A DNA stretch of 64,000 nucleotides from a virus. Taxonomy: Duplodnaviria > Heunggongvirae > Uroviricota > Caudoviricetes. The DNA is taken from the IMG/VR virus record IMGVR_UViG_3300029841_000001, positions 1-64,000 of that record, one strand, 5' to 3'. Both the position numbers and the translations under genes were made by a program. The notes beneath the pieces are model-generated. The model did not search any database. It worked only from the letters and a program-made list of their open reading frames with translations, and was not told the origin of the DNA. Below are positions 4,899 through 63,354 of this stretch, piece after piece. Position 1 is the first letter of the stretch. Each line of letters opens with the position of its first letter.

Positions 4899-5810
4899 TT
4901 ATTCTCCTTCTACAATTCCCCAACCTTTACAAGTAGGGCATTCACAATATTTTTTGTTAATCTGTGACATAAGCTCTGTTAAAAATTTCTCTACTTTATT
5001 TTGTAAATCTTGATAATTTTCTCCGATAATAGATGGAGCTTTTACACAATCTTTTCCAAAATCTGTAGATGTTGAATTTTTAAAATCAATAATCGTTTCT
5101 GTTTTATGTGAAATCATACGATTAACCCACTTAGGCTTTCTTTTTCTTTTACTGAATAGATTATTATTTGTATCAATTAAAATATTGTATGGATCAGCCA
5201 ATGCGATTTTCTTCTTTACTTCAAAATGAAAATCATAATCAGATGTGATATCAGCAACATTAGTATCAATATTTGCTTTAACATAATTTCTTATAATCTT
5301 TAACATTTCATCACAATCTAGTTTGCAAGGTTTGTCTTGATATGCTTCTTCTGGATATTCAATTTGTGTGAGTAAATCTGTTTTTGCATTATATTTATTG
5401 GGAACAAACTCAAAATTTTCTCTTGAGTAAATTTCTTTAATTTCAAATTCAATTGGTTCATATTCTCCTGGAATAGTGTCATACTTATAGTTATATAATC
5501 CAATTACTTCATCGTATTCTTCACTTTGTTCCATTTCTTGTGTGATAATCTGTGGCATGAGTTCTGTTGCAGTATATCCTGCTTTCAGTTCATACCTAAC
5601 ATTAATACGTTTATCTTCTTGCTTTGCTGCTACAACTTTAGGAATACTATTAAGTTTAAACCATCTATCTTTATTTGTTTTCTCTGGTACTTCACCATCA
5701 AATAAGTATCTAGTTAAGTCTGTAACTCCATAATAATCTTCATCTGCTATGTAAATATAGTTTTTACAGTTAATTACTTTAAGTTTTAATAGATTTTCTT
5801 TACTATACAT
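4899..5810 (-). CDS. Hypothetical protein with C-terminal zinc ribbon
   Basis: 303 aa, C-terminal CECPTCKGWG. Confidence 0.4.
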   Translation of the reverse strand: MYSKENLLKLKVINCKNYIYIADEDYYGVTDLTRYLFDGEVPEKTNKDRWFKLNSIPKVVAAKQEDKRINVRYELKAGYTATELMPQIITQEMEQSEEYDEVIGLYNYKYDTIPGEYEPIEFEIKEIYSRENFEFVPNKYNAKTDLLTQIEYPEEAYQDKPCKLDCDEMLKIIRNYVKANIDTNVADITSDYDFHFEVKKKIALADPYNILIDTNNNLFSKRKRKPKWVNRMISHKTETIIDFKNSTSTDFGKDCVKAPSIIGENYQDLQNKVEKFLTELMSQINKKYCECPTCKGWGIVEGE

Positions 5811-26917: not shown

Positions 26918-27829
26918 TTAATGCATTTCCTTATCGGCTTTATGTAATCTCATTACATTATTATAAAGTTTATCTCCAAGCAATTTTTGATATTTATGTT
27001 TTGTTTTATCTCCGTATTCTTTATCTTTTTCCCAGAAATGAGGTTGCATATGTAAATTAATAATAATAGAAACATCCAATCTATTTACACTTTGTGGATA
27101 ATCAAAGAACAAACTATCATATGAACCTGTACAATGATGCTGATAATAATGTGCTATATCTGTTATTTCTCCTTTTGAGTTAACAAAGCTTTTAACAAAT
27201 GGTTTACCGCAATCATGAAGCGATCCCGCATAGTATAGTAAAGAATTATCTTTTAATTCCTCTCCAACTAATTTGCAATGTTGTCCAAGTGTATATACAT
27301 GATGTGGATTATCCTGGTTAAATTCCATATGTTTATCAATCCAATTTTCAACAGTATCCACAATTTTATAATTTTGCGGGAACACGATCCTAATATCATC
27401 CCATCCTTCAAACCAATATGGAGTATTCCAATTTTTATACATTCTATCAATTACTTCATATGGAACAATTCTACTTCTTGACTCATTCTGTTTATAGCAC
27501 ATATGAAACGGAGTAGCCATTATTATACATTTTTTAATACATGGAATATTTTTAAGTTCAGACAAAAACGCCCTACGTCTTTTAGATTTAATATTTGTTG
27601 CGTCATAAATTGTATTCTTACCATTTTTTAAATTATTTTTAATTCTTTTGTGCAATACACGAAATACTTCTTCGTTTTGATTTTGTATATTTTCATTACC
27701 AAATAATTCTTCTCTAATAGCATCTGAATTACAAATTATTGCATTAATGTCATCCGATAATTGTTTTGCATAAGTGGACTTGCCTGACCCAACAAGACCA
27801 ACCATCATAATAAAAATAGGTTTATTCAT
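26918..27829 (-). CDS. Polynucleotide kinase-HD phosphohydrolase (Pnk-HD-type end-healing enzyme)
   Basis: N-terminal P-loop kinase (MVGLVGSGKSTYAKQ, downstream D and R as in polynucleotide 5'-kinases). C-terminal HD domain (H..H...LHDCGKP...H). Adjacent to the RNA ligase. Confidence 0.6.
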   Translation of the reverse strand: MNKPIFIMMVGLVGSGKSTYAKQLSDDINAIICNSDAIREELFGNENIQNQNEEVFRVLHKRIKNNLKNGKNTIYDATNIKSKRRRAFLSELKNIPCIKKCIIMATPFHMCYKQNESRSRIVPYEVIDRMYKNWNTPYWFEGWDDIRIVFPQNYKIVDTVENWIDKHMEFNQDNPHHVYTLGQHCKLVGEELKDNSLLYYAGSLHDCGKPFVKSFVNSKGEITDIAHYYQHHCTGSYDSLFFDYPQSVNRLDVSIIINLHMQPHFWEKDKEYGDKTKHKYQKLLGDKLYNNVMRLHKADKEMH

Positions 27830-29144
27830 TTACAGTTTCCTCATATAATTCTTCTGCTTCTTCAATATCGGGAGTATCTGATGTATCTTTTGCAATACCT
27901 TCAACAACTTTAAATTCAAAAACTTTATCTTTAAAAGCAGTAAATGTTTCCCTATTATCAATACGGACGACTACTCCTTCTGCGATATGTGTCTTTCCAA
28001 TCTCATCCACTGGCATCCCGTCAAGATATTTATTTACTCTCATTTTTAAATCTTCTGGGGTTGTATAAATAAATTTCTCTAAATCTGGTACATGTTTAAC
28101 GCCTAATTTGTCACACCATATTTTAGTTACTTCCCAAGGGACTTCAACAACTGTTCCATCTGCGGTAGTCATAGTCATTCTATACACATACATTTCTGAT
28201 TCACCAGGTTTACATCCATATGAAAATATAGTAGTGTCACCGAATTTCTTTATAAATGCTTTATCTTTTACACTTTTATTTGAAACGGAACTCATAATAG
28301 GAGTAGACTCATTTACATATCCAACAATCTCATAAAAGATTTCACATCCTTCTGGTAATTTATCTTTTAAAATATCATGATATTTTCTTCTGAATCCATT
28401 GTCTGAATAATATCCATCATTCTTTGCCATATCTTTTAATACAACTCTTCTACTTCCAGATACAACGGAAACTTCTCTAATTGTCTTTGGACACATTCGA
28501 AATAATCTTCTTAGTAAATTATTTTTCTTGGTTACTTTTACAGTTTTCATTGTACGTGCAGATGTTCCATGCATTTTTCTTGTAATATAAATTGTATCTC
28601 CTGGTTTAAACGCAGATATATTATATGCAAGCTGTGCAGTATCCTTATGCTCTTCAAAAAATGGATACGATATAGATTCTTGTTTATATTTATTTTTCTT
28701 ATTTTTTGAATTAGGTATATTTGAATTTGAACGTCTTTTACTTCTTGGAATATATTTCTTACAAATCTCATGTCCTCCAAGAATTGTAATTTGATCACCA
28801 TCTTTTAATTTTGAAATATCAGTATATTTAGAAAGTGTTTCAACTGGTAAAACAAGTCCTTCTGATTTCTCGCCACGGAGTCTTATAGCGGTAACATTTC
28901 TTTTTTCTGCGTCCATATAACCGCCGATGTTATTACCATTTTCATCTTTCTTTCGCACAAGATTATTATCTATAGCAAATTCAATAGAAAGCTGTCCATC
29001 GGAAGGAAAGAATATTACTTTTTGTCCTTCTTTATAGCTTAAATCTACAATTACATTTTGACCAAATACTTCCGCACACTGTAATCTATCAGCATTACTA
29101 TGTTTCCTTAGACCTTTTAGCGTTGTTATATATGCACAATACAT
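27822..29144 (-). CDS. ATP-dependent RNA ligase (Rnl2/DraRnl-like)
   Basis: Adenylyltransferase motif I RKMHGTS (T4 Rnl2 KIHGTN); N-terminal extension upstream of the nucleotidyltransferase domain; 440 aa. Confidence 0.55.
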   Translation of the reverse strand: MYCAYITTLKGLRKHSNADRLQCAEVFGQNVIVDLSYKEGQKVIFFPSDGQLSIEFAIDNNLVRKKDENGNNIGGYMDAEKRNVTAIRLRGEKSEGLVLPVETLSKYTDISKLKDGDQITILGGHEICKKYIPRSKRRSNSNIPNSKNKKNKYKQESISYPFFEEHKDTAQLAYNISAFKPGDTIYITRKMHGTSARTMKTVKVTKKNNLLRRLFRMCPKTIREVSVVSGSRRVVLKDMAKNDGYYSDNGFRRKYHDILKDKLPEGCEIFYEIVGYVNESTPIMSSVSNKSVKDKAFIKKFGDTTIFSYGCKPGESEMYVYRMTMTTADGTVVEVPWEVTKIWCDKLGVKHVPDLEKFIYTTPEDLKMRVNKYLDGMPVDEIGKTHIAEGVVVRIDNRETFTAFKDKVFEFKVVEGIAKDTSDTPDIEEAEELYEETVNE

Positions 29145-33694: not shown

Positions 33695-34723
33695 TTAGAT
33701 TTCACCTTTAACTACTCTTTCATTTACAGAAGCTACAAACTCATTAATCTTTTTATAATCTGGACTATCTGGTAAATCGGTATTCTCTTTTGCGTAGTCT
33801 AATCTCTTTTCATATTCATCTACCATTTCATAAAATTCTGGAACAGGTTGCCTATTTTCATCTAAATATTTACCATTACGAATATCCATAAGTAAATCAT
33901 GCTCTTTATCTCTATAGGTATTGATTTCTCCTTTTTCAAGAATATCCAGGCACATCATATATAATCTAATCAAATGCATCATATGTTTACCTAATTTATT
34001 TGCTTCAATCGCTTTTTGATTGCGTTTACCAATCTTGCCATATGCTTTTACGATAGATTGCATTTCAGAAATCATACCAGAATAATCTCTTAGAGGATAA
34101 TGTGTTAAATTCACATCCATAAAAATTTCCGTATCATATCCCTCTTGAACTGCTTTATCAATATATAATTTAATCGCATCATCTGGCATTGTAAAATGTT
34201 TTTGTTTAAAGTCAAACATTGCATGATCAATTGTCTTAAAGATATGTTCTTCGTTTTTAGCCTGTCCAACTAATCTATTTGACTTATTCTCCAACCTACG
34301 GAGCTGCTGATTAGCATAGCCACCAAAAGAATAAATTGCTTTCTTCGATAGAAATAAATCTTTATTATAAATAAATTCTCTACCAATTGGCGATACATAG
34401 AAATAATGTTCTGGTTTATTACCGAGCATTTCAATTGTGTTAGGATTACAATTGCATAACAGTGAAATCAATTTATTAAACGCATAAATGGTTGTATCTG
34501 TTTTTTCATTTACAAATTGCTCAAAATTTTCATTCGTAAGAATTTGCATTTTACTATTCAATGCACATCCTCTAATATCCAGATCACTTGTTTCTGTATT
34601 TGTACCATAAGCATGACTTCCACCAAGTGTAAGAATAATAATATTATTACCTAAATTCTTATCTTTTCGTAAGAAATCGTATTCTTTACTTCTTAATTTC
34701 TCTTTAATCTGCTCTATTGTCAT
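33695..34723 (-). CDS. Pol-beta-superfamily nucleotidyltransferase
   Basis: LTLGGSHAYGTNTETSDLDIRG matches hG[GS]-x9-13-[DE]h[DE]h; 342 aa with a helical C-terminal domain. Confidence 0.5.
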   Translation of the reverse strand: MTIEQIKEKLRSKEYDFLRKDKNLGNNIIILTLGGSHAYGTNTETSDLDIRGCALNSKMQILTNENFEQFVNEKTDTTIYAFNKLISLLCNCNPNTIEMLGNKPEHYFYVSPIGREFIYNKDLFLSKKAIYSFGGYANQQLRRLENKSNRLVGQAKNEEHIFKTIDHAMFDFKQKHFTMPDDAIKLYIDKAVQEGYDTEIFMDVNLTHYPLRDYSGMISEMQSIVKAYGKIGKRNQKAIEANKLGKHMMHLIRLYMMCLDILEKGEINTYRDKEHDLLMDIRNGKYLDENRQPVPEFYEMVDEYEKRLDYAKENTDLPDSPDYKKINEFVASVNERVVKGEI

Positions 34724-38012: not shown

Positions 38013-39113
38013 TTATCTTAAATCTACATCATTTCGGGTTTCTCCATCAGAATAATAAATATTCCAATCATTAAATAAATTTATAAGCAAATCATTATCC
38101 CATTTGTCATATTCATTACAATGGGTAATTGCAATTGATTTTGTATTTCCAAAATCTCCAATATCATCAGAACATCTATTATATAGTTCTCTTAGATTAA
38201 GATGTCCATATCTTAATATATCTTGAAAAGGATTTGGAACATTTGTTTTATCATACATATATTCGTTAATAAAATTTTTATTGCATTCTGATGGAAATTT
38301 CCCTGCGCCATGTCTTGTTAAATAAGTACGAGATACATAACAAGTTTCAATATTTATATCATCATTCCATTCAATATTTTCAATTATTTTCTTGGGATTT
38401 TTAATTCCAGTGTTAGATGGGGTAAGATGTGGAAAATAATCAATATTATTTTGATCAAGTAAAAGCCCTTGTGCTGCTTCAAAAATAATATTGTCATACT
38501 GATTTAAGAAATATTCATCTGAAATACACAATGAATGGCTATTCATAAAATCCAAGTCTTCTAAGAAATGTTCAAATATACCATTATCAAAAAAGATTTT
38601 CAACCATTCGCCTGATAATTCAATGTCCTCCTTTTTAAATTGTTCCAAATAGTATTCTTTAATATTGTAATCTAAATCAGTTACACCAGCTCTATATCTT
38701 TTAATTGTCTCAAAAACCCCTAATCCACAACTACCATGTTTATTTTTACCACGGCTTTCCTCAACGATTTGATTAGCTATCATATCAAATGGAGTTGTTA
38801 TCATGCAATTTTGATTAATATATACATTTAGATTATGATTAAGTTTTACTAACTCATCATATTCTTGTTTAAAAATAATTGGATTAAGAATAAAATCCTC
38901 AGATAAATATGTACTTGCGTTATTAAATGTACCTGATCCAAAATGATGAAAGACATGTCTAATTGCAGTTGGCGTTGTTACAGTATGTCCTCTTTGCGCT
39001 CCACCATTTGAACACACAACAATGCTATTGGATTTTTGCGAAAAATAATCTGTCATCAAGCCCTTTCCTTCATCCCCAAAATTTGCTCCAATTACAATCT
39101 TAATGTCTTTCAT
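38013..39113 (-). CDS. Adenylosuccinate-synthetase-like enzyme (PurA family; PurZ candidate)
   Basis: GANFGDEGKGLMTD (PurA GDEGKGK P-loop) and NGGAQRGHTV (PurA GG.NAGHT). 366 aa is shorter than cellular PurA and within the phage PurZ range. Confidence 0.55.
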   Translation of the reverse strand: MKDIKIVIGANFGDEGKGLMTDYFSQKSNSIVVCSNGGAQRGHTVTTPTAIRHVFHHFGSGTFNNASTYLSEDFILNPIIFKQEYDELVKLNHNLNVYINQNCMITTPFDMIANQIVEESRGKNKHGSCGLGVFETIKRYRAGVTDLDYNIKEYYLEQFKKEDIELSGEWLKIFFDNGIFEHFLEDLDFMNSHSLCISDEYFLNQYDNIIFEAAQGLLLDQNNIDYFPHLTPSNTGIKNPKKIIENIEWNDDINIETCYVSRTYLTRHGAGKFPSECNKNFINEYMYDKTNVPNPFQDILRYGHLNLRELYNRCSDDIGDFGNTKSIAITHCNEYDKWDNDLLINLFNDWNIYYSDGETRNDVDLR

Positions 39114-40010: not shown

Positions 40011-40619
40011 TTATGCTTCCTCCTCTTCTTCTACATCTGTATCATTGTCTGTATCAAAATCAAACATTCCATCAAACATTTCTCCCATATTTCCACCCAT
40101 CATCATAAATGGTAACATGGCACTCATTCCTCCACTATTTCCATTTAGCATTCCAGAAGAATTGTTTTCACCTTTCATCATTTGTGAAAGCATCATATAT
40201 TTAAAAATATTGTTTGTGCCTTTCTTTCCTTTTAAAATATCACATCCAAACATTGAAACAATTTTCCCATAAAAATATGTATTACCCATAAATACATGTC
40301 TCTCAGGTAAAATAGTTTCTACTGTTGAATCTTCATAGTTGATTACAGTAATTTTAGTTTTATCAGATTCAATGACACATTTTGGTTTATTATTAACTAA
40401 AATAATATCACCTTTTTCTACTTTATTTGTTGGAATTACAAAGAAAAATTCTTCTCCAATATCAAACACAAAATTGCTACAATTAGTAAGTTTACTTGTT
40501 TTAACATTGTAGCTTTTGTACCCGTTTGATGTTTTTACTGCAATTCCTCCATTCATTGAAAGCCTACACATTCCACTTCCAACTTTCCCAAACATCCCGT
40601 TTAAAAAATTGTTCATCAT
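40011..40619 (-). CDS. Hypothetical protein with Gly/Met-rich and acidic C-terminal tail
   Basis: 202 aa; ...GMLNGNSGGMSAMLPFMMMGGNMGEMFDGMFDFDTDNDTDVEEEEEA; overlaps the VWA gene (operon). Confidence 0.4.
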   Translation of the reverse strand: MMNNFLNGMFGKVGSGMCRLSMNGGIAVKTSNGYKSYNVKTSKLTNCSNFVFDIGEEFFFVIPTNKVEKGDIILVNNKPKCVIESDKTKITVINYEDSTVETILPERHVFMGNTYFYGKIVSMFGCDILKGKKGTNNIFKYMMLSQMMKGENNSSGMLNGNSGGMSAMLPFMMMGGNMGEMFDGMFDFDTDNDTDVEEEEEA

Positions 40620-51957: not shown

Positions 51958-52368
51958 TCATTCCAGGTCAATATCCTTTCCATCAAAATCAGATAAGTCA
52001 ATAATCCATTCATATTTATCAGTTTCTTCGTTATAATGTTTTACGGATATCATAGCAACCCAATTCAGAATCTTTTTAAATAAGTTCTCATCATAATTAC
52101 ATTCTCTATTCCAAAATAAATTATTGCTAAATATGTAATACAGAAATGAATGTAACTTATTGTCTCTATGATTCTCCAATACCCATTCAACCATAGGAAA
52201 TAAAAATATCTGATTAGCAAGTTGATAAGTAATGTCAATGTCATCACAATAATATTTGTGATAATATCTATTCATTGCATTAAATACTGACCCGTACTTT
52301 TCATAATTGTATCTTCCCTTGCAAATAAGAAATATCTCTTTAGAAAATTTTTCTTTCTCCTTATCCAT
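51958..52368 (-). CDS. Hypothetical protein
   Basis: 136 aa. Confidence 0.4.
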   Translation of the reverse strand: MDKEKEKFSKEIFLICKGRYNYEKYGSVFNAMNRYYHKYYCDDIDITYQLANQIFLFPMVEWVLENHRDNKLHSFLYYIFSNNLFWNRECNYDENLFKKILNWVAMISVKHYNEETDKYEWIIDLSDFDGKDIDLE

Positions 52369-52690
52369 TATAATTCTCTCCGTAAACTGCTATTTCTGGT
52401 TTACCATCTTCATCCAATATGTAATATGGTGTAATGCCACCATAATGATCTGAACCTTGTACTACATATACAATTTTAGTGGTTTTATCATATACAAAAT
52501 ATTGACTGAATATACACCCATCATTTGATGCGATTTTTGTTTTCTTAATTTCAATAAATTGACCGAATGATTGAACTTTTTCACCTTTATCATTTATCAC
52601 TTTGTCACCACATCCAGTAAACGAAAGTGTCAGTCCAGATACAAGTAATCCAATTAATAGTTTCTTAACTTTCATTCTGTCCCCTCTCAA
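52361..52690 (-). CDS. Lipoprotein
   Basis: Signal peptide and lipobox MKVKKLLIGLLVSGLTLSFTGC; start probably at the internal MKVKK. Confidence 0.5.
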   Translation of the reverse strand: MRGDRMKVKKLLIGLLVSGLTLSFTGCGDKVINDKGEKVQSFGQFIEIKKTKIASNDGCIFSQYFVYDKTTKIVYVVQGSDHYGGITPYYILDEDGKPEIAVYGENYNG

Positions 52691-52693
52691 AAC

Positions 52694-53473
52694 TCACATT
52701 TCAACAATTCTGTATAATTGCCTATTCAGATAATGTTCAAGTAAATAATCATTATCTAGCCCAGTACCATGATAAAATTCTTCTGCAATTCCACCACCTA
52801 TAGCACATAATGTATCCATATCACATTTCAACGAGAATACATTTCGCAAGAAACTTTCATAATCATCACTTTCCAGAAAACATCTTATTGCAACAGGTAC
52901 ACTTCCTTGACAAGTTTCATTCCACTGATATGTCTTTCTATAGTCTTCAATTTTATATTCAACACTATATTGATAATCGTCTTTTGGGTAATTCTTCTTC
53001 ACATATTCATAGATTTCTGCTTTTGTAGCACCTGTTCTTGCCATATAAATGCACATTGCTGTTACAACTGCTCCTTTGATTCCCTCTGAATGATTATGTG
53101 TACACTCAGCAGATTTTGTAGCCCATTCGATAACTTCTTTTTCTGTATTAAAATGTTCTCCGACATAAGAACATCTCATTGCAGATCCATTACCAAAACT
53201 TCCATATGTAGTTTCATCATCGTATCTTAACCACGTTTCAAAATTGTTTCCATATCCTGCATTTGGATATTTTCTTCCCCATTCTCTATATGATTCTGCG
53301 AAAGATTTATTATTAAGAATTGCTAATTTAGCAGCAAGTGTCATTACAGTATCATCTGTAAAATAACATCTATCAGTAAATAACTTACAATTCTTCCAGT
53401 CTAAATCAATCGGTCTACCAAATTCATATTGTGAACCTGCAATATCTCCTAAAATTGCGCCAATGATAGCCAT
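52694..53473 (-). CDS. ADP-ribosylglycohydrolase family protein (ARH/DraG-like)
   Basis: N-terminal AIIGAILGDIAGSQYEF (GDALG.p.E motif) and FTDDTVMTLA (DDT motif); 259 aa. Confidence 0.6.
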   Translation of the reverse strand: MAIIGAILGDIAGSQYEFGRPIDLDWKNCKLFTDRCYFTDDTVMTLAAKLAILNNKSFAESYREWGRKYPNAGYGNNFETWLRYDDETTYGSFGNGSAMRCSYVGEHFNTEKEVIEWATKSAECTHNHSEGIKGAVVTAMCIYMARTGATKAEIYEYVKKNYPKDDYQYSVEYKIEDYRKTYQWNETCQGSVPVAIRCFLESDDYESFLRNVFSLKCDMDTLCAIGGGIAEEFYHGTGLDNDYLLEHYLNRQLYRIVEM

Positions 53474-53558
53474 AGTATTAATCTCCTTTATATTAAATTG
53501 TAATTTTTATGGGATTTTATTAAGAAATATTAGAAATTTTTACCATGAAACCACGATT

Positions 53559-53756: not shown

Positions 53757-54312
53757 ATTTTAATAATTCTCCATTTCTAATGATTATTCTTGAGCAAACA
53801 AATTTTACTTTCAAATCTGTATCCCATGAATCACGTTTCTCAATTCTTGTTATAATCACAGGAGCAATTCCATTCTTTGTACCGCAATAAATCAAATCTC
53901 CTGGCAGCAACACATCATACATATTCTCTTTTGATTTTGGCAATCTCCAAACATATTCTTTATTAATAATTCCATTTGGATGTTTACCATAAATATATAC
54001 AGTTGGTTTCTCTTTATATGTAAGAACTTTCTCAGGTGGAACTAAACGTCCATATCTTACACGTTGTTTATCAGTATATTTATGTTTTCTTAACGTGATA
54101 CGTTTTGCATCACAACTCTCAGCATTATGACTTTTTAACACCAGATACATTATGTAGCCATCTACTAAAACATTCTTCTCATCTACTACTATGTACCTAT
54201 CCTGATTTCCTATTTCTTTATAATATCTACAACATTTTTCATATTTGTATAAACTTGGTACACTATTTTCAAAACTCTCTGGAATTTTGATTTCTGAAAG
54301 ATTCATCTTCAT
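53722..54312 (-). CDS. Hypothetical protein
   Basis: 196 aa. Confidence 0.4.
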   Translation of the reverse strand: MKMNLSEIKIPESFENSVPSLYKYEKCCRYYKEIGNQDRYIVVDEKNVLVDGYIMYLVLKSHNAESCDAKRITLRKHKYTDKQRVRYGRLVPPEKVLTYKEKPTVYIYGKHPNGIINKEYVWRLPKSKENMYDVLLPGDLIYCGTKNGIAPVIITRIEKRDSWDTDLKVKFVCSRIIIRNGELLKYEIDKDGSANV

Positions 54313-56582
54313 TATGCAGTAGCCCCTTTCTTATTGAATCTAATGAAGTCGTTCCTCATATGTAAATAATTTCTCTTCTGATCAATCTCATATGTATTTG
54401 TTCTTTTAAAGTAGTCCTTAAACCAATCGTCAATATCCTCATCCATCTTATAAGCATAAGCAATAAGAGCAATAAGAGATTTATGATTTACTCCATCTAA
54501 GAGTTTTGAATTATTATCAACATCAAGTGTTACAACATCCAAATCTTCCTCATAATCCAGGATATCGGCATCTGTCACATCATCATCAACACACATTTTT
54601 ACAAATTCTAAAGTATCTTTATCTACTACTTCTCCACTAACATGCTCGATTTCTTTGTTTCCAATAGCTGAATACTCTGTTACTTCTGCAATAATTGGCT
54701 TCTTATCATCAGATTCTTCTACTACTTCTGTATCAAATAAATCATCTTCGATTACATCTAATTCTGATTCTTCAACAGAATCTTCTATATGTAAGTATTC
54801 TTTCATCAGAGTAAGTAAATGATTGAATCTTTTTGTTACAGAAGAGCGATCCTTTGTACCTTTCTGACCATTTAAACAATCATATGTAATACCGTCAATT
54901 TCCTTGCTATGTAATGTTTCTTTAAACTCCTGAATAAAATCATTGAATTTATTATCTTCAACGCCATATTCTATGAATTTATCAAATAACGCAAACCATA
55001 AAAATGAATTTTTGTTATTAAAAATATCCGATGTATCACCTCTTAACACATTAGATAATTTCTCCAATGTCAAATAGAAATCAATAAATACTGATTCATT
55101 TGCATTTTCTGTTAAGTAAATACACATTTTCCCAAAGTCTTTATCAAAATGGCTAAGATATTTAGATGTCATTATTGCTTCAATAATGACTCTTCTAAGT
55201 GATCCATTCTTGATATTCGTATTTGAATAACTTGACTTATCACAATCAACCTTAAAGAAGTCCATCTTTAAAATCTTATCTACATATTCGGCATAGGATT
55301 CTTCCAATCCTAGCCATCCTGACTGAGAAACGTTCATTGGTCTACATCTATTGAATCGTGCAATATCATAAGCAATATCTTTCTTTGTACAATTCAGATT
55401 AAGCATTACAGGAACTTGATAATCCTTAAATTTATCCTGTAATTCTTCTGGTAACTGAGAAAATTTCTTTCCACGAATATCAAATGTTTTACTTTCGGGT
55501 ATTGGAAATCCATCTTCATTCAAAATCACATTACCATCTTCATCTGTCTTATCAGTCTGATATTCAATCATATATCTCTGTACATTCTTTGAAACAGCAA
55601 ATCCATCTTCCAGATAATCTTTTAAATTTGTAGAACGCTGTTTGCCATCAATTAACCAGTGCATCGTAATTCCGGCTTTGATTTCTTCTGAAATTACAAT
55701 CTGTAAAAGTGAATTACCTTGTAAAATATCAGAAATTAATTCACTTTTTGTAAGTAAATTCCATTGTCCAGAAGTTCTTTGCAATGGATGATTATCTCTT
55801 AATCTGTGCTGTCTTAACTGTTTACTAAGAGATTCTATTGAATAACTGGTAGACTTTGTTCTTTCTGATGTTGTCGTTTTTGTTTCCATTGGTAATTCCT
55901 CCTCAATATTTACATTCTCGCATTCTTCTGTTTTTAGAAGTTTTCTTTTGTCATATTCTTTCATATCAGAAAGATATGTATAATATTCCTTATCGGAAAT
56001 ATGTAAAATCTCTTTGATCTCTGTAGAATTGTATCCTTGCATTATTAAATCCGCAATTTGACGTTGTATAGTTCCAAGAGAATTAATATATCTAATTACA
56101 TTTTCCCCAAGATTCAATAATTCTCCGACATCAATATTACTTTCAATATCAAAATCCGAAGGAATCACATCCATATATTTTGTTTCTCCATCATCTGTCA
56201 TTAAATTATCTAATGATGTTGGATAAATATATTGTTTGACTTCTTTATTACCTTCTTTTGATGTTACAATCTGACATCTCTTTCCTCTGTTTTTACGTGT
56301 TATATAGGTTTTTATCTTATTCGTAATTCCAAAATACATATAACCATTGAATTTATCTTCATCAAAATCTTCAATGTTCTGATCTAATTGACTTTTTATA
56401 TACTTTGAAATATATAAATTTGCTATTGAGTAACATTCTTCTCTATCAAAATCGGTGATACCACCAAACTGCGAAAGAATTTTATCTACCATAGTATGTA
56501 ATTTTTTTGCTGATTCTTCTGGTTTATCCTCGTTTACTTTATAGTACGATTCCAGAATTTCTTTGTAGTGCATCTGTACCAC
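54312..56582 (-). CDS. Sigma-70-like HTH (regions 2/4-like) fused to a DUF262 (ParB/DGQQR-type) domain and a long acidic C-terminal region
   Basis: N-terminal ~210 aa include LGTIQRQIADLIMQGYNSTEIKEILHIS (sigma region-4-like HTH). The middle has HPLQRTSGQW ... WLIDGKQRSTNL, i.e. the DUF262 [FY]QR..W + DGQQR motifs. The C-terminus is D/E-rich. Confidence 0.5.
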   Translation of the reverse strand: MVQMHYKEILESYYKVNEDKPEESAKKLHTMVDKILSQFGGITDFDREECYSIANLYISKYIKSQLDQNIEDFDEDKFNGYMYFGITNKIKTYITRKNRGKRCQIVTSKEGNKEVKQYIYPTSLDNLMTDDGETKYMDVIPSDFDIESNIDVGELLNLGENVIRYINSLGTIQRQIADLIMQGYNSTEIKEILHISDKEYYTYLSDMKEYDKRKLLKTEECENVNIEEELPMETKTTTSERTKSTSYSIESLSKQLRQHRLRDNHPLQRTSGQWNLLTKSELISDILQGNSLLQIVISEEIKAGITMHWLIDGKQRSTNLKDYLEDGFAVSKNVQRYMIEYQTDKTDEDGNVILNEDGFPIPESKTFDIRGKKFSQLPEELQDKFKDYQVPVMLNLNCTKKDIAYDIARFNRCRPMNVSQSGWLGLEESYAEYVDKILKMDFFKVDCDKSSYSNTNIKNGSLRRVIIEAIMTSKYLSHFDKDFGKMCIYLTENANESVFIDFYLTLEKLSNVLRGDTSDIFNNKNSFLWFALFDKFIEYGVEDNKFNDFIQEFKETLHSKEIDGITYDCLNGQKGTKDRSSVTKRFNHLLTLMKEYLHIEDSVEESELDVIEDDLFDTEVVEESDDKKPIIAEVTEYSAIGNKEIEHVSGEVVDKDTLEFVKMCVDDDVTDADILDYEEDLDVVTLDVDNNSKLLDGVNHKSLIALIAYAYKMDEDIDDWFKDYFKRTNTYEIDQKRNYLHMRNDFIRFNKKGATA

Positions 56583-58179: not shown

Positions 58180-58330
58180 TACCAATTCTCTTTCCTCTTT
58201 ATTGTCAACATTTCCCCATTTTTCTACTACGTCACGCTTGTCAATGGTAAAAATCTGCTCTCGTGAACTACCACGAAGCTAAAGACTTCGTAGCTTCTTG
58301 GGACTATACTCTTATGAGCATTTCATTACC
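58180..58330 (-). ncRNA. Predicted omega-RNA (reRNA) region at the 3' end of tnpB / right end
   Basis: Inferred from TnpB biology: the guide RNA scaffold derives from the tnpB 3' end and RE, and this region contains the RE hairpin. Boundaries are not determinable from sequence alone. Confidence 0.3.
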
Positions 58331-59680
58331 AAGCTAATAACCGTGTTCCACAGTCTCTTATATTCATCGCTGCATTATAATCTCTATCGTTTTCATATCC
58401 ACAATCACAAGTATACCATCTGTCTGATAATTGCAAATCTTCTTTAATAGTGCCACAACAATGACACATTTTAGAAGACGGAAACCATTTATCAATCTTA
58501 ATAAATTGTTTTCCTTGTTCTTCCAACTTATATTTCAAAAAAGTCCTAAACATTCCAAATCCATTATCATGAACATTCTTTCCAAGTTTTAGACATTGAG
58601 CCATATTTCTTAAATCAATATCTTCTACTATAACAGCGTCATATTCGCCAGCTATTCTTCTCGATTCTTGGTGTAACCAATTAAGTCTTTGATTTGCAAT
58701 ATGTCTTTGTAATGTTGTAATTTTTTGTTTTTGTTTATACCAGTTTTTAGATTTAAGTTTTTTTCTTGACAATCCTCTTTGGATTTTTTTTAATTTTTCT
58801 TCTGATTTCCTATAATAGTGAGGATAATTGGCTTTCTTACCATTGCTATCAACATAGAAATCATGTTGAGAATAATCTAATCCAAGAACTTTTTCTGATT
58901 TCTTTGATTCAATATCAATTACATATTTAACACATAAACTGACATAAAATACACCCTTATTATCCATTGAAACAGTACAATTCTTAATAATTGAATTATT
59001 TGGCAATGGACGATGTTGTTTTACTTTAATCAATGTTTTAAGTTTTGGAATTTTTAACATAGAATTTTCCAATGTAATTAAATTCCATTTTTCACCTTGT
59101 GACTGATTATATGTTCTATATGAAAAATCATTGTTCTTAATACTCTTAAATCTTGGCATTCCTTTTAAGTCTCTGAAAGTAAGTTTAATTCCTAATGTCT
59201 TTTCTCTTTTTCGACTGCTTTTGGTATATGTCTTTTTATCATATTCTGTATTAAATTTTTTAATGGCATTATTAAAATCCATTTTTGCACTTGATAAACA
59301 CTGAGCATCAACATTTTTCATATAATCAAACTGTCTTGAAAAATCAGTATATTTACTCAAATGCAATTCCGATTTTTTAATTATTCCATTCTGATAACTA
59401 GACTCTTCGAGTTTTCTATATAACTCATCAACATACATATTGTATATTTTTCTTGCACAACCAAATGATTGTAAGAAAAACTCTTTCTGATCTTTAGTTG
59501 GAGCAATTTTAAACTTATAACCTCGATTAATGATAGTTTCCATCGTCTCACCACCTTTCTATGGATATTTTAGTTCCTACATATTTTTCTTTGATTTATT
59601 CTTCTTTATGTTGGTATATTCTCTATTCACATTCATTCACTAGGCTAAAGACCTAGTGGATTTCTGCTCTAGAAGTTTTA
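58260..59680 (-). mobile_element. IS200/IS605-family (IS1341-type, tnpB-only) insertion sequence with subterminal hairpins
   Basis: Intact TnpB ORF flanked by two hairpins in the same orientation with identical CTAAAGA loops and different, compensatory stems: ACGAAG/CTTCGT at 58273-58291 and CACTAGG/CCTAGTG at 59638-59658. This is typical of IS200/IS605 LE/RE structures. The element ends are approximate. Confidence 0.6.
58326..59543 (-). CDS. tnpB: TnpB (OrfB) RuvC-like RNA-guided nuclease/transposase-associated protein
   Basis: N-terminal OrfB-type HTH (GYKFKIAPTKDQKEFFLQSFGCARKIYN), C-terminal RuvC-III plus zinc ribbon CHCCGTIKED...CDCGYENDRDYNAAMNI; 405 aa. Confidence 0.75.
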   Translation of the reverse strand: METIINRGYKFKIAPTKDQKEFFLQSFGCARKIYNMYVDELYRKLEESSYQNGIIKKSELHLSKYTDFSRQFDYMKNVDAQCLSSAKMDFNNAIKKFNTEYDKKTYTKSSRKREKTLGIKLTFRDLKGMPRFKSIKNNDFSYRTYNQSQGEKWNLITLENSMLKIPKLKTLIKVKQHRPLPNNSIIKNCTVSMDNKGVFYVSLCVKYVIDIESKKSEKVLGLDYSQHDFYVDSNGKKANYPHYYRKSEEKLKKIQRGLSRKKLKSKNWYKQKQKITTLQRHIANQRLNWLHQESRRIAGEYDAVIVEDIDLRNMAQCLKLGKNVHDNGFGMFRTFLKYKLEEQGKQFIKIDKWFPSSKMCHCCGTIKEDLQLSDRWYTCDCGYENDRDYNAAMNIRDCGTRLLAW

Positions 59681-59864: not shown

Positions 59865-60161
59865 TTATTCTAACATAGGATATGGAAACATTATATTTCT
59901 CATTAATTCTCCTTCTTTTTCGTTTGACAAACATCCAATTACACCAAAGAAATCATTGTCTTGATATCCAATTTCTTTAGCTAATTCAATTAATTCTTTA
60001 CCTATCTTTTTCTTATTTCTTAAAGTAGGTTTATGGATCATTGTAGATTTATTGTAAATTGCAATAGTAACGCTATCTCCTGGCGCTGCATCAATCATTT
60101 TTTTTGCTTCTTCTTTAGAAACTGTTAAATATCCTTCAATCATGCTAATACTTCCTCCCAA
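59865..60161 (-). CDS. Small protein, possible MazE/AbrB-like partner of the MazF-like toxin
   Basis: 98 aa. GYLTVSKEEAKKMIDAAPGDSVTIAIYNKSTMIHKP loosely resembles a swapped-hairpin antitoxin segment. Overlaps the toxin gene by 22 nt, but lies downstream of the toxin rather than upstream. Confidence 0.3.
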   Translation of the reverse strand: MGGSISMIEGYLTVSKEEAKKMIDAAPGDSVTIAIYNKSTMIHKPTLRNKKKIGKELIELAKEIGYQDNDFFGVIGCLSNEKEGELMRNIMFPYPMLE

Positions 60162-60544
60162 TTAATATTTTCTCCAAAGAACATTGTATTCCAACATACT
60201 TTATTTACAATGTTTCTCTGTTCTTTATCTACAACGGCTCCAAGCTTTCTTTTGATCTCACATTTTTTATCTAGTGTATAAGGTTGCTCACCAAGAACCA
60301 TTGAGTATAAAGACAAACCAGTATCACTATTTGCACTGATACATCCATGAGTAGGAAGTCCAGTTCTTTTTATAATATGAGTCAAAGGCATGGCAATAAC
60401 TGTTGGAGCTGTAGTAGTCCCTTTTTCATTTCCCACAATCACATATGGACGTTTCTTTTTCTGCACAGAGCCAGATGGTGTTGTCATCTTAATCTCAGCT
60501 TCAATAATATCATATCTGTGATATTCATTTCTCATACCTTCCAT
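60140..60544 (-). CDS. MazF/PemK-family endoribonuclease toxin
   Basis: KRPYVIVGNE...VIAMPLTHIIKRTGLPTHGCISANSDTGLSLYSMVLGEQPYTLDKKCEIKRKLGAV matches the PemK/MazF pattern (RP..V..., PLT, TLDK); 134 aa. Confidence 0.6.
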   Translation of the reverse strand: MEGMRNEYHRYDIIEAEIKMTTPSGSVQKKKRPYVIVGNEKGTTTAPTVIAMPLTHIIKRTGLPTHGCISANSDTGLSLYSMVLGEQPYTLDKKCEIKRKLGAVVDKEQRNIVNKVCWNTMFFGENINWEEVLA

Positions 60545-60635: not shown

Positions 60636-60664
60636 TTGCAAAAAATAAATATTTTTGATATAAT
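60636..60664 (+). promoter_or_regulatory. Sigma-70 consensus promoter for the XRE gene
   Basis: TTGCAA (60636-60641), 17-nt spacer, TATAAT (60659-60664); RBS GGAGGG 8 nt before the ATG at 60693. Confidence 0.6.
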
Positions 60665-60692
60665 CTATTCATCAAAAATTGGAGGGAAATTC

Positions 60693-60902
60693 ATGAAAGT
60701 AATTCTCAAAGAAACCCTTGAAAAGAAAGGTAAATCACAATATTGGCTTGCAAAAGAAACAGGAATAGCTGCATCTACTTTAAGCAATATGTGTTCAAAT
60801 AAAACAACTAAAGTAGATTTTGTTGTTCTCCAAAAAATATGTAATGCTTTAAAATGTGATATTACTGACATTCTTTCAACAGCAAAGGACGATGATAAAT
60901 AA
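60693..60902 (+). CDS. XRE-family (Cro/CI-type) helix-turn-helix transcriptional regulator
   Basis: MKVILKETLEKKGKSQYWLAKETGIAASTLSNMCSNKTTKVDFVVLQKICNALKCDITDIL is a classic HTH_XRE. The ORF track starts it at 60636, but the RBS supports the internal Met. Confidence 0.7.
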   Translation: MKVILKETLEKKGKSQYWLAKETGIAASTLSNMCSNKTTKVDFVVLQKICNALKCDITDILSTAKDDDK

Positions 60903-61984: not shown

Positions 61985-62524
61985 TTACTTAACCTCAAAT
62001 TTAAGAATCATTTTCTTAACTCTATCAATTTCTTCTGTTGTATGTGGTGTTCCACCTGCGTTCATATCAATATACCACTGTAACACTTCTCGTTCTGTCT
62101 TTAAATCATTCACATTCAATTTTACAGTATGACTATTTAACATTGCTAAATCCGTATACTCATTGAAATATGATCCAAATACTTTGATTTCGTTATTGAT
62201 AAATCTGCAAATAGCAGTCAATCTTTGCAACCCATCTACACACACAAACTCATTGTATGCTCCATCTTGAACAGACCAATGCCATGATGGACAATTAAAG
62301 TATATGATATTTCCGCTTTTACCGCCTTTAAGAAAGAACTCTAACCATGCAATCTGCTGTTCCTCTGTCCATACATGTCCTCTCTGGAAATCTGGGTTAA
62401 GCTGCAAGTTCATATCTTCTTCCATGTCTTTTATCCATCTAGGAACTCTACTGATATTTACATCACATTGATAGTTACCATCCCTGGTAAATTGTGGTAT
62501 GTATTTAAATTTTGTATACTTCAT
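61985..62524 (-). CDS. DUF262 (ParB/DGQQR-type) domain protein
   Basis: NPDFQRGHVW ... CVDGLQRLTAI; 179 aa. Confidence 0.55.
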   Translation of the reverse strand: MKYTKFKYIPQFTRDGNYQCDVNISRVPRWIKDMEEDMNLQLNPDFQRGHVWTEEQQIAWLEFFLKGGKSGNIIYFNCPSWHWSVQDGAYNEFVCVDGLQRLTAICRFINNEIKVFGSYFNEYTDLAMLNSHTVKLNVNDLKTEREVLQWYIDMNAGGTPHTTEEIDRVKKMILKFEVK

Positions 62525-62544: not shown

Positions 62545-63354
62545 TTATTCCTGACACAAGTTGTTATACATCTGTTCTACTTTATCCAAATGCTTTTGAT
62601 CCATCACTTTTCCTGTACGATTAAGCATTAAAAAATATTTTAATATTACTTTTTTGTCTGATTCTTCAATATTACCAACAGATATATGGTGATCTTTAAA
62701 CGTATATTTGTCCATACCACTTAAATCACTATAATATTTTCCCATATACGGAAATCTATCTTCATAAAATTCTACCAATGCATTTAATCGCTGTTTACCG
62801 TCAAGAATTTCATATCCATATCCATATTCCATCCATTTAGATGTAGAATGATGAACTAAAGCTATTTTACCAATATCAATATTATTAAAAATACTGTCAA
62901 TTAAAAGCAATTTATCTTCCATCGTCCATACATAATCTCTTTGATAATCTGGATTCATATTAATACCGAAATTATAATAAGTGTGTAGTAAACTCTCAAT
63001 CGTAGAATTATTAAAATTTATTCTTACATCTTGATTCTTTGAAAAATTACTATCATTATGTTTGATTGCTCGAATATCCATCCATGCAGTAACAATATAT
63101 TTCTGATAATCATATGGACTTCCATAGTTATTATCTGTTGCGGTGCATAATAACCCATATACCTTGCCATCATACAATACTTCTTTTATTACAGATTTCT
63201 TTAAAGAACCATATATAACCTCGTCACCAATATTAAAAGAATAAGTTGGCTCATTAATATATTGTACTCGATCTTCGATAAATGATAACTCTCTATCTCT
63301 TTCTTGTTTTAATCTCTCTTCTAATGTTAATTCTTTCTTTGTTTTTCTTGCCAT
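62545..63354 (-). CDS. DUF262 (ParB/DGQQR-type) domain protein with N-terminal extension
   Basis: NPDYQRDYVW ... ILDGKQRLNAL; 269 aa; tandem with the previous gene. Confidence 0.55.
   Translation of the reverse strand: MARKTKKELTLEERLKQERDRELSFIEDRVQYINEPTYSFNIGDEVIYGSLKKSVIKEVLYDGKVYGLLCTATDNNYGSPYDYQKYIVTAWMDIRAIKHNDSNFSKNQDVRINFNNSTIESLLHTYYNFGINMNPDYQRDYVWTMEDKLLLIDSIFNNIDIGKIALVHHSTSKWMEYGYGYEILDGKQRLNALVEFYEDRFPYMGKYYSDLSGMDKYTFKDHHISVGNIEESDKKVILKYFLMLNRTGKVMDQKHLDKVEQMYNNLCQE

Follow-up and report, generated by a model that had tools for sequence, protein, structure and literature searches.

A stand-alone ARH3-like ADP-ribosylhydrolase gene in a large low-GC gut phage as a candidate counter-defence eraser

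The first 64,000 nucleotides of the IMG/VR phage record IMGVR_UViG_3300029841_000001 (Caudoviricetes), the whole stretch analyzed here and henceforth termed the window, carry a minus-strand gene for a protein of the ADP-ribosylhydrolase (ARH) family, which we term the phage ARH. All positions refer to the window, and residue numbers to the 259-residue product. The interval 52694..53473 coincides exactly with one open reading frame (ORF) running from ATG to TGA on the minus strand. With 780 nucleotides open in DNA of 30% GC, this ORF is judged to be no chance feature. The gene, its ribosome-binding site and the motifs of the predicted active site lie as follows:

52694..53473, minus strand: coding sequence of the ARH3-like ADP-ribosylhydrolase, 259 residues, ATG at 53473-53471 and TGA at 52696-52694
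53483..53488, minus strand: ribosome-binding site AAGGAG, 9 nucleotides upstream of the ATG, read directly from the sequence
53423..53449, minus strand: motif G9-D10-x-x-G13-S14-x-x-E17, 'GDIAGSQYE' against 'GDCVGSFYE' of ARH3 (2foz) in a HMMER alignment
53348..53359, minus strand: T39-D40-D41-T42, corresponding by alignment to the ARH3 MgA ligands Thr76/Asp77/Asp78
53186..53200, minus strand: loop S92-x-G94-N95-G96, aligned to the ARH3 segment 'GSYGNGGAMR'
53096..53101, minus strand: T125-H126, the conserved 'TH' motif of the ARH/ARG domain, identified by conservation among lineages
52811..52822, minus strand: D218-x-D220-T221, corresponding by alignment to the ARH3 MgB/MgA ligands Asp314/Asp316/Thr317

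The composition of the gene matches that of the phage, both in GC content (32.9% versus 30.3±2.5% in the other window genes) and in GC at third codon positions (18.1% versus 19.0±2.7%), which suggests a settled gene and not a recent import. A scan for promoters and terminators returned nothing exceeding chance. The exact protein is already present in NCBI as MFR0829864.1, an 'ADP-ribosylglycohydrolase family protein' from a metagenome-assembled genome (MAG) of Thomasclavelia sp., with UVY35667.1 (Bacteriophage sp.) and DAZ10968.1 (Caudoviricetes sp.) as near relatives. Public databases had thus annotated it correctly as a family member beforehand.

Profile searches bore out the ARH-family identity that a first-pass annotation had proposed from the sequence. 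The ORF matches Pfam PF03747 (ADP_ribosyl_GH) with 99.6 bits (E 3.3e-28; cutoff 26.2) from residue 2 to 230, equivalent to profile positions 2-275 of 287 and hence to the whole domain, and matches phrog_6572, 'ADP-ribosylglycohydrolase', at E 7.6e-46. An AlphaFold2 model (pLDDT 91.8, pTM 0.92) is all helical. The structural comparison with the ARH family that the same annotation had called for placed the protein within it, with Foldseek probabilities of 1.00 to ARH3, MJ1187, Thermus 2cwc and DraG. DraG gave the best TM-score (2woc/2woe; 0.79/0.71, root-mean-square deviation 3.7 Å), which probably reflects the like compactness of DraG (ca. 299 residues). Assignment as a DraG equivalog was rejected, the NCBIfam model scoring 30.5 bits against a cutoff of 337.

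Within the family, sequence comparisons consistently pointed to ARH3. A single-sequence search of the PDB ranked ARH3 first (E 3e-12), and a profile built from 26 members of the phage ARH family again retrieved ARH3 at the top (E 5e-24, 88 bits), followed by Listeria Lmo0067 as the second-closest solved relative (E 5e-12), MJ1187 (E 3.5e-11), ARH1 (E 7e-5) and DraG (E 2e-4). Judged by these scores, ARH3 is nearer to the phage protein than either ARH1 or DraG, and the protein resembles the 1''-O-glycosidic subfamily, not the arginine-directed DraG, Tri1 and ARH1. ARH3/ADPRS (human 2foz, Latimeria 6g1p), which is the best sequence and profile match and also a top Foldseek hit, has in common with the phage protein the all-alpha ARH fold, an identical two-metal site (T-D-D and D-x-D-T), the Glu-flap glutamate, and the S-x-G-N-G and T-H motifs. 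Identity is nonetheless 21-26%, strong alignment is limited mainly to phage residues 2-155, and at 259 residues, compared with 347-363 in ARH3, the phage protein is without ca. 90 residues of insertions. By alignment it is therefore ARH3-like but not an ARH3 orthologue, and it does not have the full ARH3 architecture. ARH3 is specific for 1''-O-linkages, a specificity that its Glu flap underlies (PMC8141533), and by subfamily resemblance the phage ARH may likewise prefer O-linked ADP-ribose.

The predicted active site is intact. Both motifs noted in the first-pass annotation are present, the N-terminal one as G9-D10-I11-A12-G13-S14 ('GDIAGS') and the DDT-type one as T39-D40-D41-T42 ('TDDT'). 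In ARH3, T76/D77/D78 and D314/D316/T317 coordinate the two metal ions, MgA and MgB, and are essential for activity (PMC8141533). We assessed the equivalent positions in a set of 38 viral lineages with 44-79% identity. T39, D40, D41, D218, D220 and T221 are unchanged in 38/38 lineages, and G9, D10, G13, E17, S92, G94, N95, G96, R100 and H126 are invariant as well, with T125 kept in 36 of the 38; the 'TH' motif formed by the latter pair is described for the ARH/ARG domain in a 2022 survey of viral NAD and ADP-ribose enzymes (PMC9503650). By sequence alignment, E17 corresponds to the Glu-flap residue E41 of ARH3. Loss of the metal-binding Asp/Thr residues, which would mark an inactive homolog, was looked for in the alignment, and no loss was seen. 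Since the metal ligands and the Glu-flap glutamate are all invariant, we rejected the notion of an inactive homolog. The phage ARH is predicted to be catalytically competent and to need two metal ions.

We next turn to the gene's company, beginning with enzymes that could set the mark it removes. With Pfam, no domain of the ADP-ribosyltransferase (ART), macro, NADAR, sirtuin or Nudix type was recognized in window ORFs of at least 150 residues, a search that divergent ARTs could escape. The same domains are absent from precomputed Pfam annotation within 10 kb of the identical ARH on other contigs, and among homologs of 36-79% identity, spanning about eleven types of context, neither a Pfam-recognized ART nor any other of these domains lies within 6-10 kb. 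The contexts include large phages; phage-plasmid-like elements in which ARH, two small genes, N6_Mtase and integrase form a conserved block near LPD15, TubZ and ParAB; a small integrase island flanked by housekeeping genes; an island resembling an integrative and conjugative element, which encodes dynamin-like GTPases and an FtsK/HerA-type ATPase as well as a Colicin-DNase/WHH toxin and the matching immunity protein; temperate phages of Porphyromonas and Bacteroides, in which ARH sits at the boundary between lysogeny and structural modules; and one plain chromosomal copy (71% identity) beside an HxlR regulator. The gene is an orphan that encodes a predicted stand-alone eraser and is carried mostly by phages or other mobile elements.

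DraG and Tri1-type ARHs have the fold and the two-metal site in common with the phage ARH, yet act on arginine-linked ADP-ribose and are paired with a cognate transferase, which in the phage is not found next to the gene. More generally, the transferase-coupled systems (DraT/DraG, Tre1/Tri1, phage ART-ARG) have an ART close by, and a Pfam search found none near the phage ARH. The gene could still be the antidote or regulator of an ART encoded elsewhere in the same phage, similar to DraT/DraG or to the ART-ARG pairs that exist in some Aeromonas phages (PMC9503650), and ca. 110 kb of the phage genome lie outside the screened window. However, toxin-antidote pairs are normally adjacent, and with no ART found either in the 64-kb window or within 6-10 kb of the homologs we regard such a pairing as distinctly improbable.

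The clade is abundant in human-gut phages, where its active site is intact and a partner transferase was not detected. Copies identical to the phage ARH were found in 228 assembly blocks, on contigs that reach 173 kb; on one of these, an integrase lies ca. 10 kb upstream. IMG/VR holds 538 viral contigs with relatives. In GenBank phage records the clade is rare (10/50,697). A broader search at E<=1e-30 with 50% clustering yielded 1,171 representatives, many of them fusions to diverse partners that include DUF1810, a RelA/SpoT-type HD hydrolase, dUTPase, HAD and a tandem ARH. When 81 fusion extensions were clustered, most were singletons unrelated to one another. With no dominant partner among them, fusions were dropped as a clue to the substrate; such diversity is typical of conflict-system modules. 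Fusions of the compact ARH domain are found at L095 293..1600 (plus strand) and in the proteins P0193, P0213, P0277, P0155 and P0222. They include DUF1810-ARH and ARH joined to a RelA/SpoT-type HD hydrolase that resembles small alarmone hydrolases; a 1595-residue protein with two ARH domains as well as an ARH-dUTPase were recognized by eye only.

The window as a whole confirms the phage origin assumed in the first-pass annotation. It has a GC content of 29.9%, and 98 of its 103 ORFs are co-directional on the minus strand. It matches a 176-kb phage record from human faeces at 85% nucleotide identity and many IMG/VR contigs of up to 177 kb. Pfam domains in the window comprise Sipho_Gp157, DnaB/RecD2-type helicases, AAA_24, an NAD-dependent DNA ligase and thymidylate synthase, alongside an SNF2 helicase, DNA methylases, a MazF toxin, TnpB and three GmrSD_N/DUF262 proteins. 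It is the replication and accessory region of a gut phage of ca. 170 kb and 30% GC. The same phage carries a known counter-defence gene:

4899..5810, minus strand: Gad1 (Gabija anti-defence 1), 303 residues, Pfam E 1.7e-65 over the full profile

ADP-ribosylation recurs as a weapon in the conflict between bacteria and phages, as in DarTG, CmdTAC and the signals of Thoeris. From its fold, family, intact site, orphan status and context, we infer an activity, a substrate class and a role for the phage ARH: on balance, we lean towards an active ARH3-like orphan hydrolase that clears the ADP-ribose marks set by host or competitor transferases and thereby serves counter-defence. In such an enzyme, two Mg2+ ions held by T39/D40/D41 and D218/D220/T221 would position the distal ribose of ADP-ribose as in ARH3, E17 would contribute, and hydrolysis of the bond at ribose C1'' would release free ADP-ribose. 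During infection, a host transferase belonging to an immune system or acting as a toxin would attach ADP-ribose to phage or host macromolecules, and the ARH would strip the mark and so preserve the cell for use by the phage. Given the likeness to ARH3, the bond would most likely be a 1''-O-linkage. Candidate substrates would then be RNA or DNA phosphate ends, serine-type protein marks, ribose-ribose bonds and small O-linked ADP-ribose derivatives.

The anti-defence candidacy put forward in the first-pass annotation remains reasonable given the orphan state of the enzyme, its occurrence mostly on mobile elements and the presence of Gad1 in the phage, while the specific targets named there need revision. 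Further counter-defence company consists of orphan methylases and of the genes for NAD+ salvage and RNA repair that related phages carry in the corresponding region. There is also precedent for phage orphan erasers, since the NADAR protein AdfN neutralizes DarTG1 (PMC11825919) and the macrodomain protein AdfM/Tk.4 neutralizes DarTG2. The ARH is a third eraser fold, for which no phage role has been demonstrated, and its substrate would point to the opposed host system, maybe an undescribed ADP-ribosylating defence in gut Bacillota.

Several points weigh against a counter-defence role. No phage ARH of the clade has been examined biochemically or genetically, neither experiment nor literature shows an ARH-fold protein in phage counter-defence, and the 2022 survey calls direct evidence lacking for such phage domains (PMC9503650). 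The known phage-defence effectors of these hosts include no Pfam-recognizable transferase that makes an O-linked mark. PADLOC returned no match for the ARH and contains no related model. The chromosomal homolog beside HxlR makes a housekeeping or metabolic role possible. Finally, ARTs are very divergent and could escape Pfam, and the examined sequence covers 64 kb of a genome of ca. 170 kb.

The closest precedents in terms of logic are the anti-DarT factors of T4. Like the phage ARH, AdfN and AdfM/Tk.4 are stand-alone erasers without a transferase partner, but they have unrelated folds and act on N-glycosidic base adducts, whereas the ARH has a different fold, probably a different bond chemistry and no known cognate defence. 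It therefore shares the logic of these factors and is not one of them, its fold being neither NADAR nor macrodomain. The first-pass annotation had proposed reversal of DarT-like DNA ADP-ribosylation, i.e., that the enzyme frees phage DNA of base-linked ADP-ribose. DarTG1 and DarTG2 are indeed both overcome by orphan erasers of phages, and ARH3 has trace activity on free thymidine-alpha-ADP-ribose (PMC12879935). However, the known DarTG erasers are NADAR and macrodomain proteins; gel-shift assays with DarT-modified DNA gave no detectable activity for ARH3, and ARH1 was inactive (PMC12879935); and among the RNA substrates tested, guanosine-linked ADP-ribose was reversed only by NADAR enzymes (PMC11833690). 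An anti-DarTG function is, accordingly, highly improbable.

The phage ARH could also be a protein de-ADP-ribosylase that provides orphan immunity against ART toxins, whether host effectors or toxins of competing bacteria or phages, and so protects the cell or lysogen. ARH-fold enzymes are the classical erasers of protein ADP-ribosylation (DraG; ARH3 for serine-linked ADP-ribose), homologs reside on temperate elements, one of them adjoining the Colicin-DNase/WHH toxin and immunity gene, and Lmo0067 is the second-closest solved relative. Phage ARG/ARH domains, the same kind of gene as the phage ARH and PHROG 6572, were surveyed by Iyer, Burroughs, Anantharaman and Aravind (2022; PMC9503650); that survey reports ARG domains in about 5% of jumbo phages, predicts that they deconjugate macromolecular ADP-ribose and argues that they favour macromolecular conjugates. 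The clade described here differs from the surveyed domains by its occurrence in large gut phages of low GC content and in further mobile elements of the gut. Against a protein substrate stand the distance from the arginine-specific ARH1, DraG and Tri1 types and the lack of an identified toxin partner or target. The literature on Lmo0067, as on DUF1810, yielded nothing useful. Serine ADP-ribosylation, moreover, is not known in bacteria. We consider this role rather unlikely.

Small ADP-ribose derivatives form another class of candidates, either the 1''-2'/1''-3' cyclic ADP-ribose signals of Thoeris or O-acetyl-ADP-ribose and ADP-ribose-1''-phosphate, whose hydrolysis would feed NAD+ recovery. 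The chemistry fits, as ARH3 cleaves 1''-O-linkages (PMC8141533), and phages do break down Thoeris signals with enzymes, though of the unrelated RyR fold (PMC13232231). The rare fusions to a RelA/SpoT-type HD hydrolase, dUTPase and DUF1810 hint at nucleotide-centred roles, and NAD+ salvage genes occur in the equivalent accessory region of related phages. No NAD+ salvage genes were found in the window itself, however. Nor did we find a paper linking the ARH fold to glycocyclic ADP-ribose, PMC13232231 makes no mention of ARH, and the survey argues that ARG domains are rare in phages since macromolecular substrates are preferred (PMC9503650). A small-molecule substrate thus appears improbable.

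Another lead came from the genes around the homologs. In the first contexts inspected, ARH directly follows a T4 Rnl1-type ligase, a PNK-like kinase, RlaP, a CCA-adding enzyme, Thg1 and a metallophosphoesterase. We therefore ran an unbiased test of neighbours, in which ORFs were called in 102 loci, clustered by all-against-all BLAST and dereplicated at 85% identity to 38 ARH lineages. The clusters found most often alongside ARH were the CCA-adding enzyme (16/38 lineages) and RlaP (15/38, in 14 of them within 3 kb), and 11 of the 38 had an unannotated 318-residue protein (u318). RlaP or the CCA-adding enzyme lies at most 3 kb from ARH in 15/38 lineages, a count with a naive binomial P of 6e-11 among lineages that are non-independent. 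The gene orders are shuffled while the neighbourhood is kept, as in ARH-RlaP-u318-CCA, RlaP-ARH-CCA, RlaP-CCA-Metallophos-ARH and CCA-ARH. The window itself holds an RNA-repair set:

26918..27829, minus strand: PNK-like AAA_33 kinase with HD domain
27822..29144, minus strand: RNA ligase (PF09414 plus PHA02142 OB domain)
33695..34723, minus strand: RlaP

A CCA-adding enzyme and Thg1 were not detected in the window, which also contains no tRNA genes. RlaP extends the 3' ends of damaged RNA by 1-2 nucleotides (PMC12776372), and ARH-type and macrodomain enzymes reverse the ADP-ribosylation of RNA phosphate ends (PMC11833690). One of these is the ARH-like protein SCO5809 of Streptomyces coelicolor, which removes ADP-ribose from 5'- and 3'-phosphate ends of RNA (PMC11833690); we liken it to the phage ARH by this described activity. 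SCO5809 is chromosomal and untied to repair genes. Such an activity is what a role in RNA-end healing would entail: as part of a phage tRNA-repair toolkit, the ARH would take ADP-ribose off 5'- or 3'-phosphate ends or another O-linked position of RNA, upon which RlaP, the CCA-adding enzyme, Thg1 and RNA ligase would restore the molecule. The shared neighbourhood with RlaP and the CCA-adding enzyme, its shuffled gene orders, the adjoining Rnl1, PNK-like kinase, Thg1 and metallophosphoesterase genes, the RNA-repair set in the window and the known activities of ARH-type enzymes and RlaP all speak for it.

The reverse test was less favourable. When 80 RlaP loci, forming 23 lineages, were examined within a radius of 8 kb, the CCA-adding enzyme was found near RlaP in 17/23 lineages and ARH in only 2/23. 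Together with a distance of 19 kb between ARH and RlaP in the window, this weakens the case for strict membership of ARH in an RNA-repair operon. In RlaP-CCA modules without ARH, we found no macro, NADAR, 2H, Tpt1 or other ADP-ribose-processing gene in its place; these modules are instead repeatedly accompanied by Thg1, NamPT, nicotinamidase, a Prs-like gene, TerD, integrase and methylase. A role in RNA-end healing is further challenged by the small temperate phages and phage-plasmids that have ARH without RNA-repair genes, by the NAD+ salvage genes, TerD and methylases which suggest that the region may be a general accessory one, by the phylogenetic dependence of the lineages, and by the fact that no host system ADP-ribosylating tRNA ends is known. 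In the sections consulted of two comparative-genomic surveys (PMC9503650, PMC7824862) we found no link between ARG/ARH and RlaP/CCA repair genes. As a lead, we propose that RlaP and the CCA-adding enzyme are a core pair, with ARH as an optional addition that is often located in the same accessory or counter-defence region.

Overall, we judge a role in RNA-end healing unlikely. If it were true, it would imply undiscovered bacterial immunity systems or toxins that disable tRNA or other RNA by ADP-ribosylating termini or ribose hydroxyls, and ARH would join NADAR and the macrodomain as the third fold of phage orphan counter-defence erasers; this full combination of an end-healing ARH, a new class of host system and a third fold is decidedly unlikely. 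For the favoured counter-defence role, the one-sided RNA-repair association and the ARH3-like chemistry nevertheless provide, as a lead, a concrete shortlist of substrates.

Some genes of the RlaP neighbourhood deserve mention in their own right:

L026 6214..7170, plus strand: u318 (cluster c5, 26 members)
L161 10393..10914; L163 11751..13214; L133 15464..16300; L139 6422..7003: accessory genes of the RlaP region in related phages

The protein u318, which has no Pfam hit, adjoins RlaP, usually between RlaP and the CCA-adding enzyme. Its motifs 'SIDMRKANFSSL' and 'FFSNDEIVV' resemble, by eye only, polymerase palm motifs, and the protein is a possible third enzyme for nucleotide restoration in the module. 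NAD+ salvage genes around RlaP in related phages encode NamPT, an isochorismatase-type nicotinamidase and a Prs-like phosphoribosyltransferase, and tandem TerD genes occur there as well; their presence suggests that an accessory or counter-defence island is shared among these phages. In 7-8 ARH lineages, a divergent ImmA/IrrE-type metallopeptidase (Peptidase_M78) and a regulator of helix-turn-helix (HTH) appearance, recognized by eye, lie immediately upstream of ARH; in L068, L083 and others, these upstream divergent genes are the minus-strand clusters c34, c35 and c59. Given the divergent genes, ARH-RlaP-u318-CCA would head an operon beside a repressor/anti-repressor switch.

In the window, the nearest neighbours of the phage ARH are of other kinds: a 65-residue zinc-ribbon protein, a 196-residue protein with a weak DUF5839 match and a 756-residue GmrSD_N/NsnA-like protein. 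Immediately downstream lies a small ORF:

52361..52675, minus strand: putative lipoprotein, 104 residues from ATG 52675, with signal peptide and LSFTG|C lipobox

The first-pass annotation had placed a lipoprotein gene at 52361..52690. The ORF does exist over this full interval and has a signal peptide and lipobox, but translation more likely starts at ATG 52675, 18 nucleotides past the ARH stop codon. The protein has a sub-threshold match to DUF6440 (22.5 versus 26.5 bits) and also matches phrog_8801. By tblastn, it adjoins ARH only in lineage 0, that of the window phage. Confined to this one lineage, it gives no sign of a functional link and was rejected as a functional partner of ARH.

Further accessory genes of the window are:

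54312..56582, minus strand: GmrSD_N/DUF262-type protein
61985..62524, minus strand: GmrSD_N/DUF262-type protein
62545..63354, minus strand: GmrSD_N/DUF262-type protein
60140..60544, minus strand: MazF/PemK-family toxin
60636..60902, plus strand: divergent small ORF next to the toxin gene
58326..59543: TnpB (IS605 OrfB/Cas12f-like)
38013..39113, minus strand: truncated adenylosuccinate-synthetase-like protein, 366 residues
39131..40009 and 40011..40619: two unannotated genes

The 756-residue GmrSD_N protein is encoded ca. 0.8 kb upstream of ARH with two small genes in between and matches the PADLOC model NsnA at E 1.6e-10. All three GmrSD_N/DUF262 proteins look like phage-borne defence or exclusion genes. 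The Pfam match of the adenylosuccinate-synthetase-like (PurA-like) protein covers profile positions 1-280 of 416, and the trio it forms with the two unannotated genes is conserved in four ARH lineages. An identity as PurZ was unsupported, as the best PDB hits were canonical PurA and no PurZ entry appeared; a role in 2-aminoadenine (Z-genome) synthesis can be neither claimed nor excluded. Host labels of the MAGs are ambiguous, naming Thomasclavelia, Lachnoclostridium and Lachnospiraceae; the 30% GC content presumably suits Thomasclavelia better. TnpB is found in some related contigs and missing from others, and in contigs with the identical ARH an HTH regulator lies at the position corresponding to 60636..60902.

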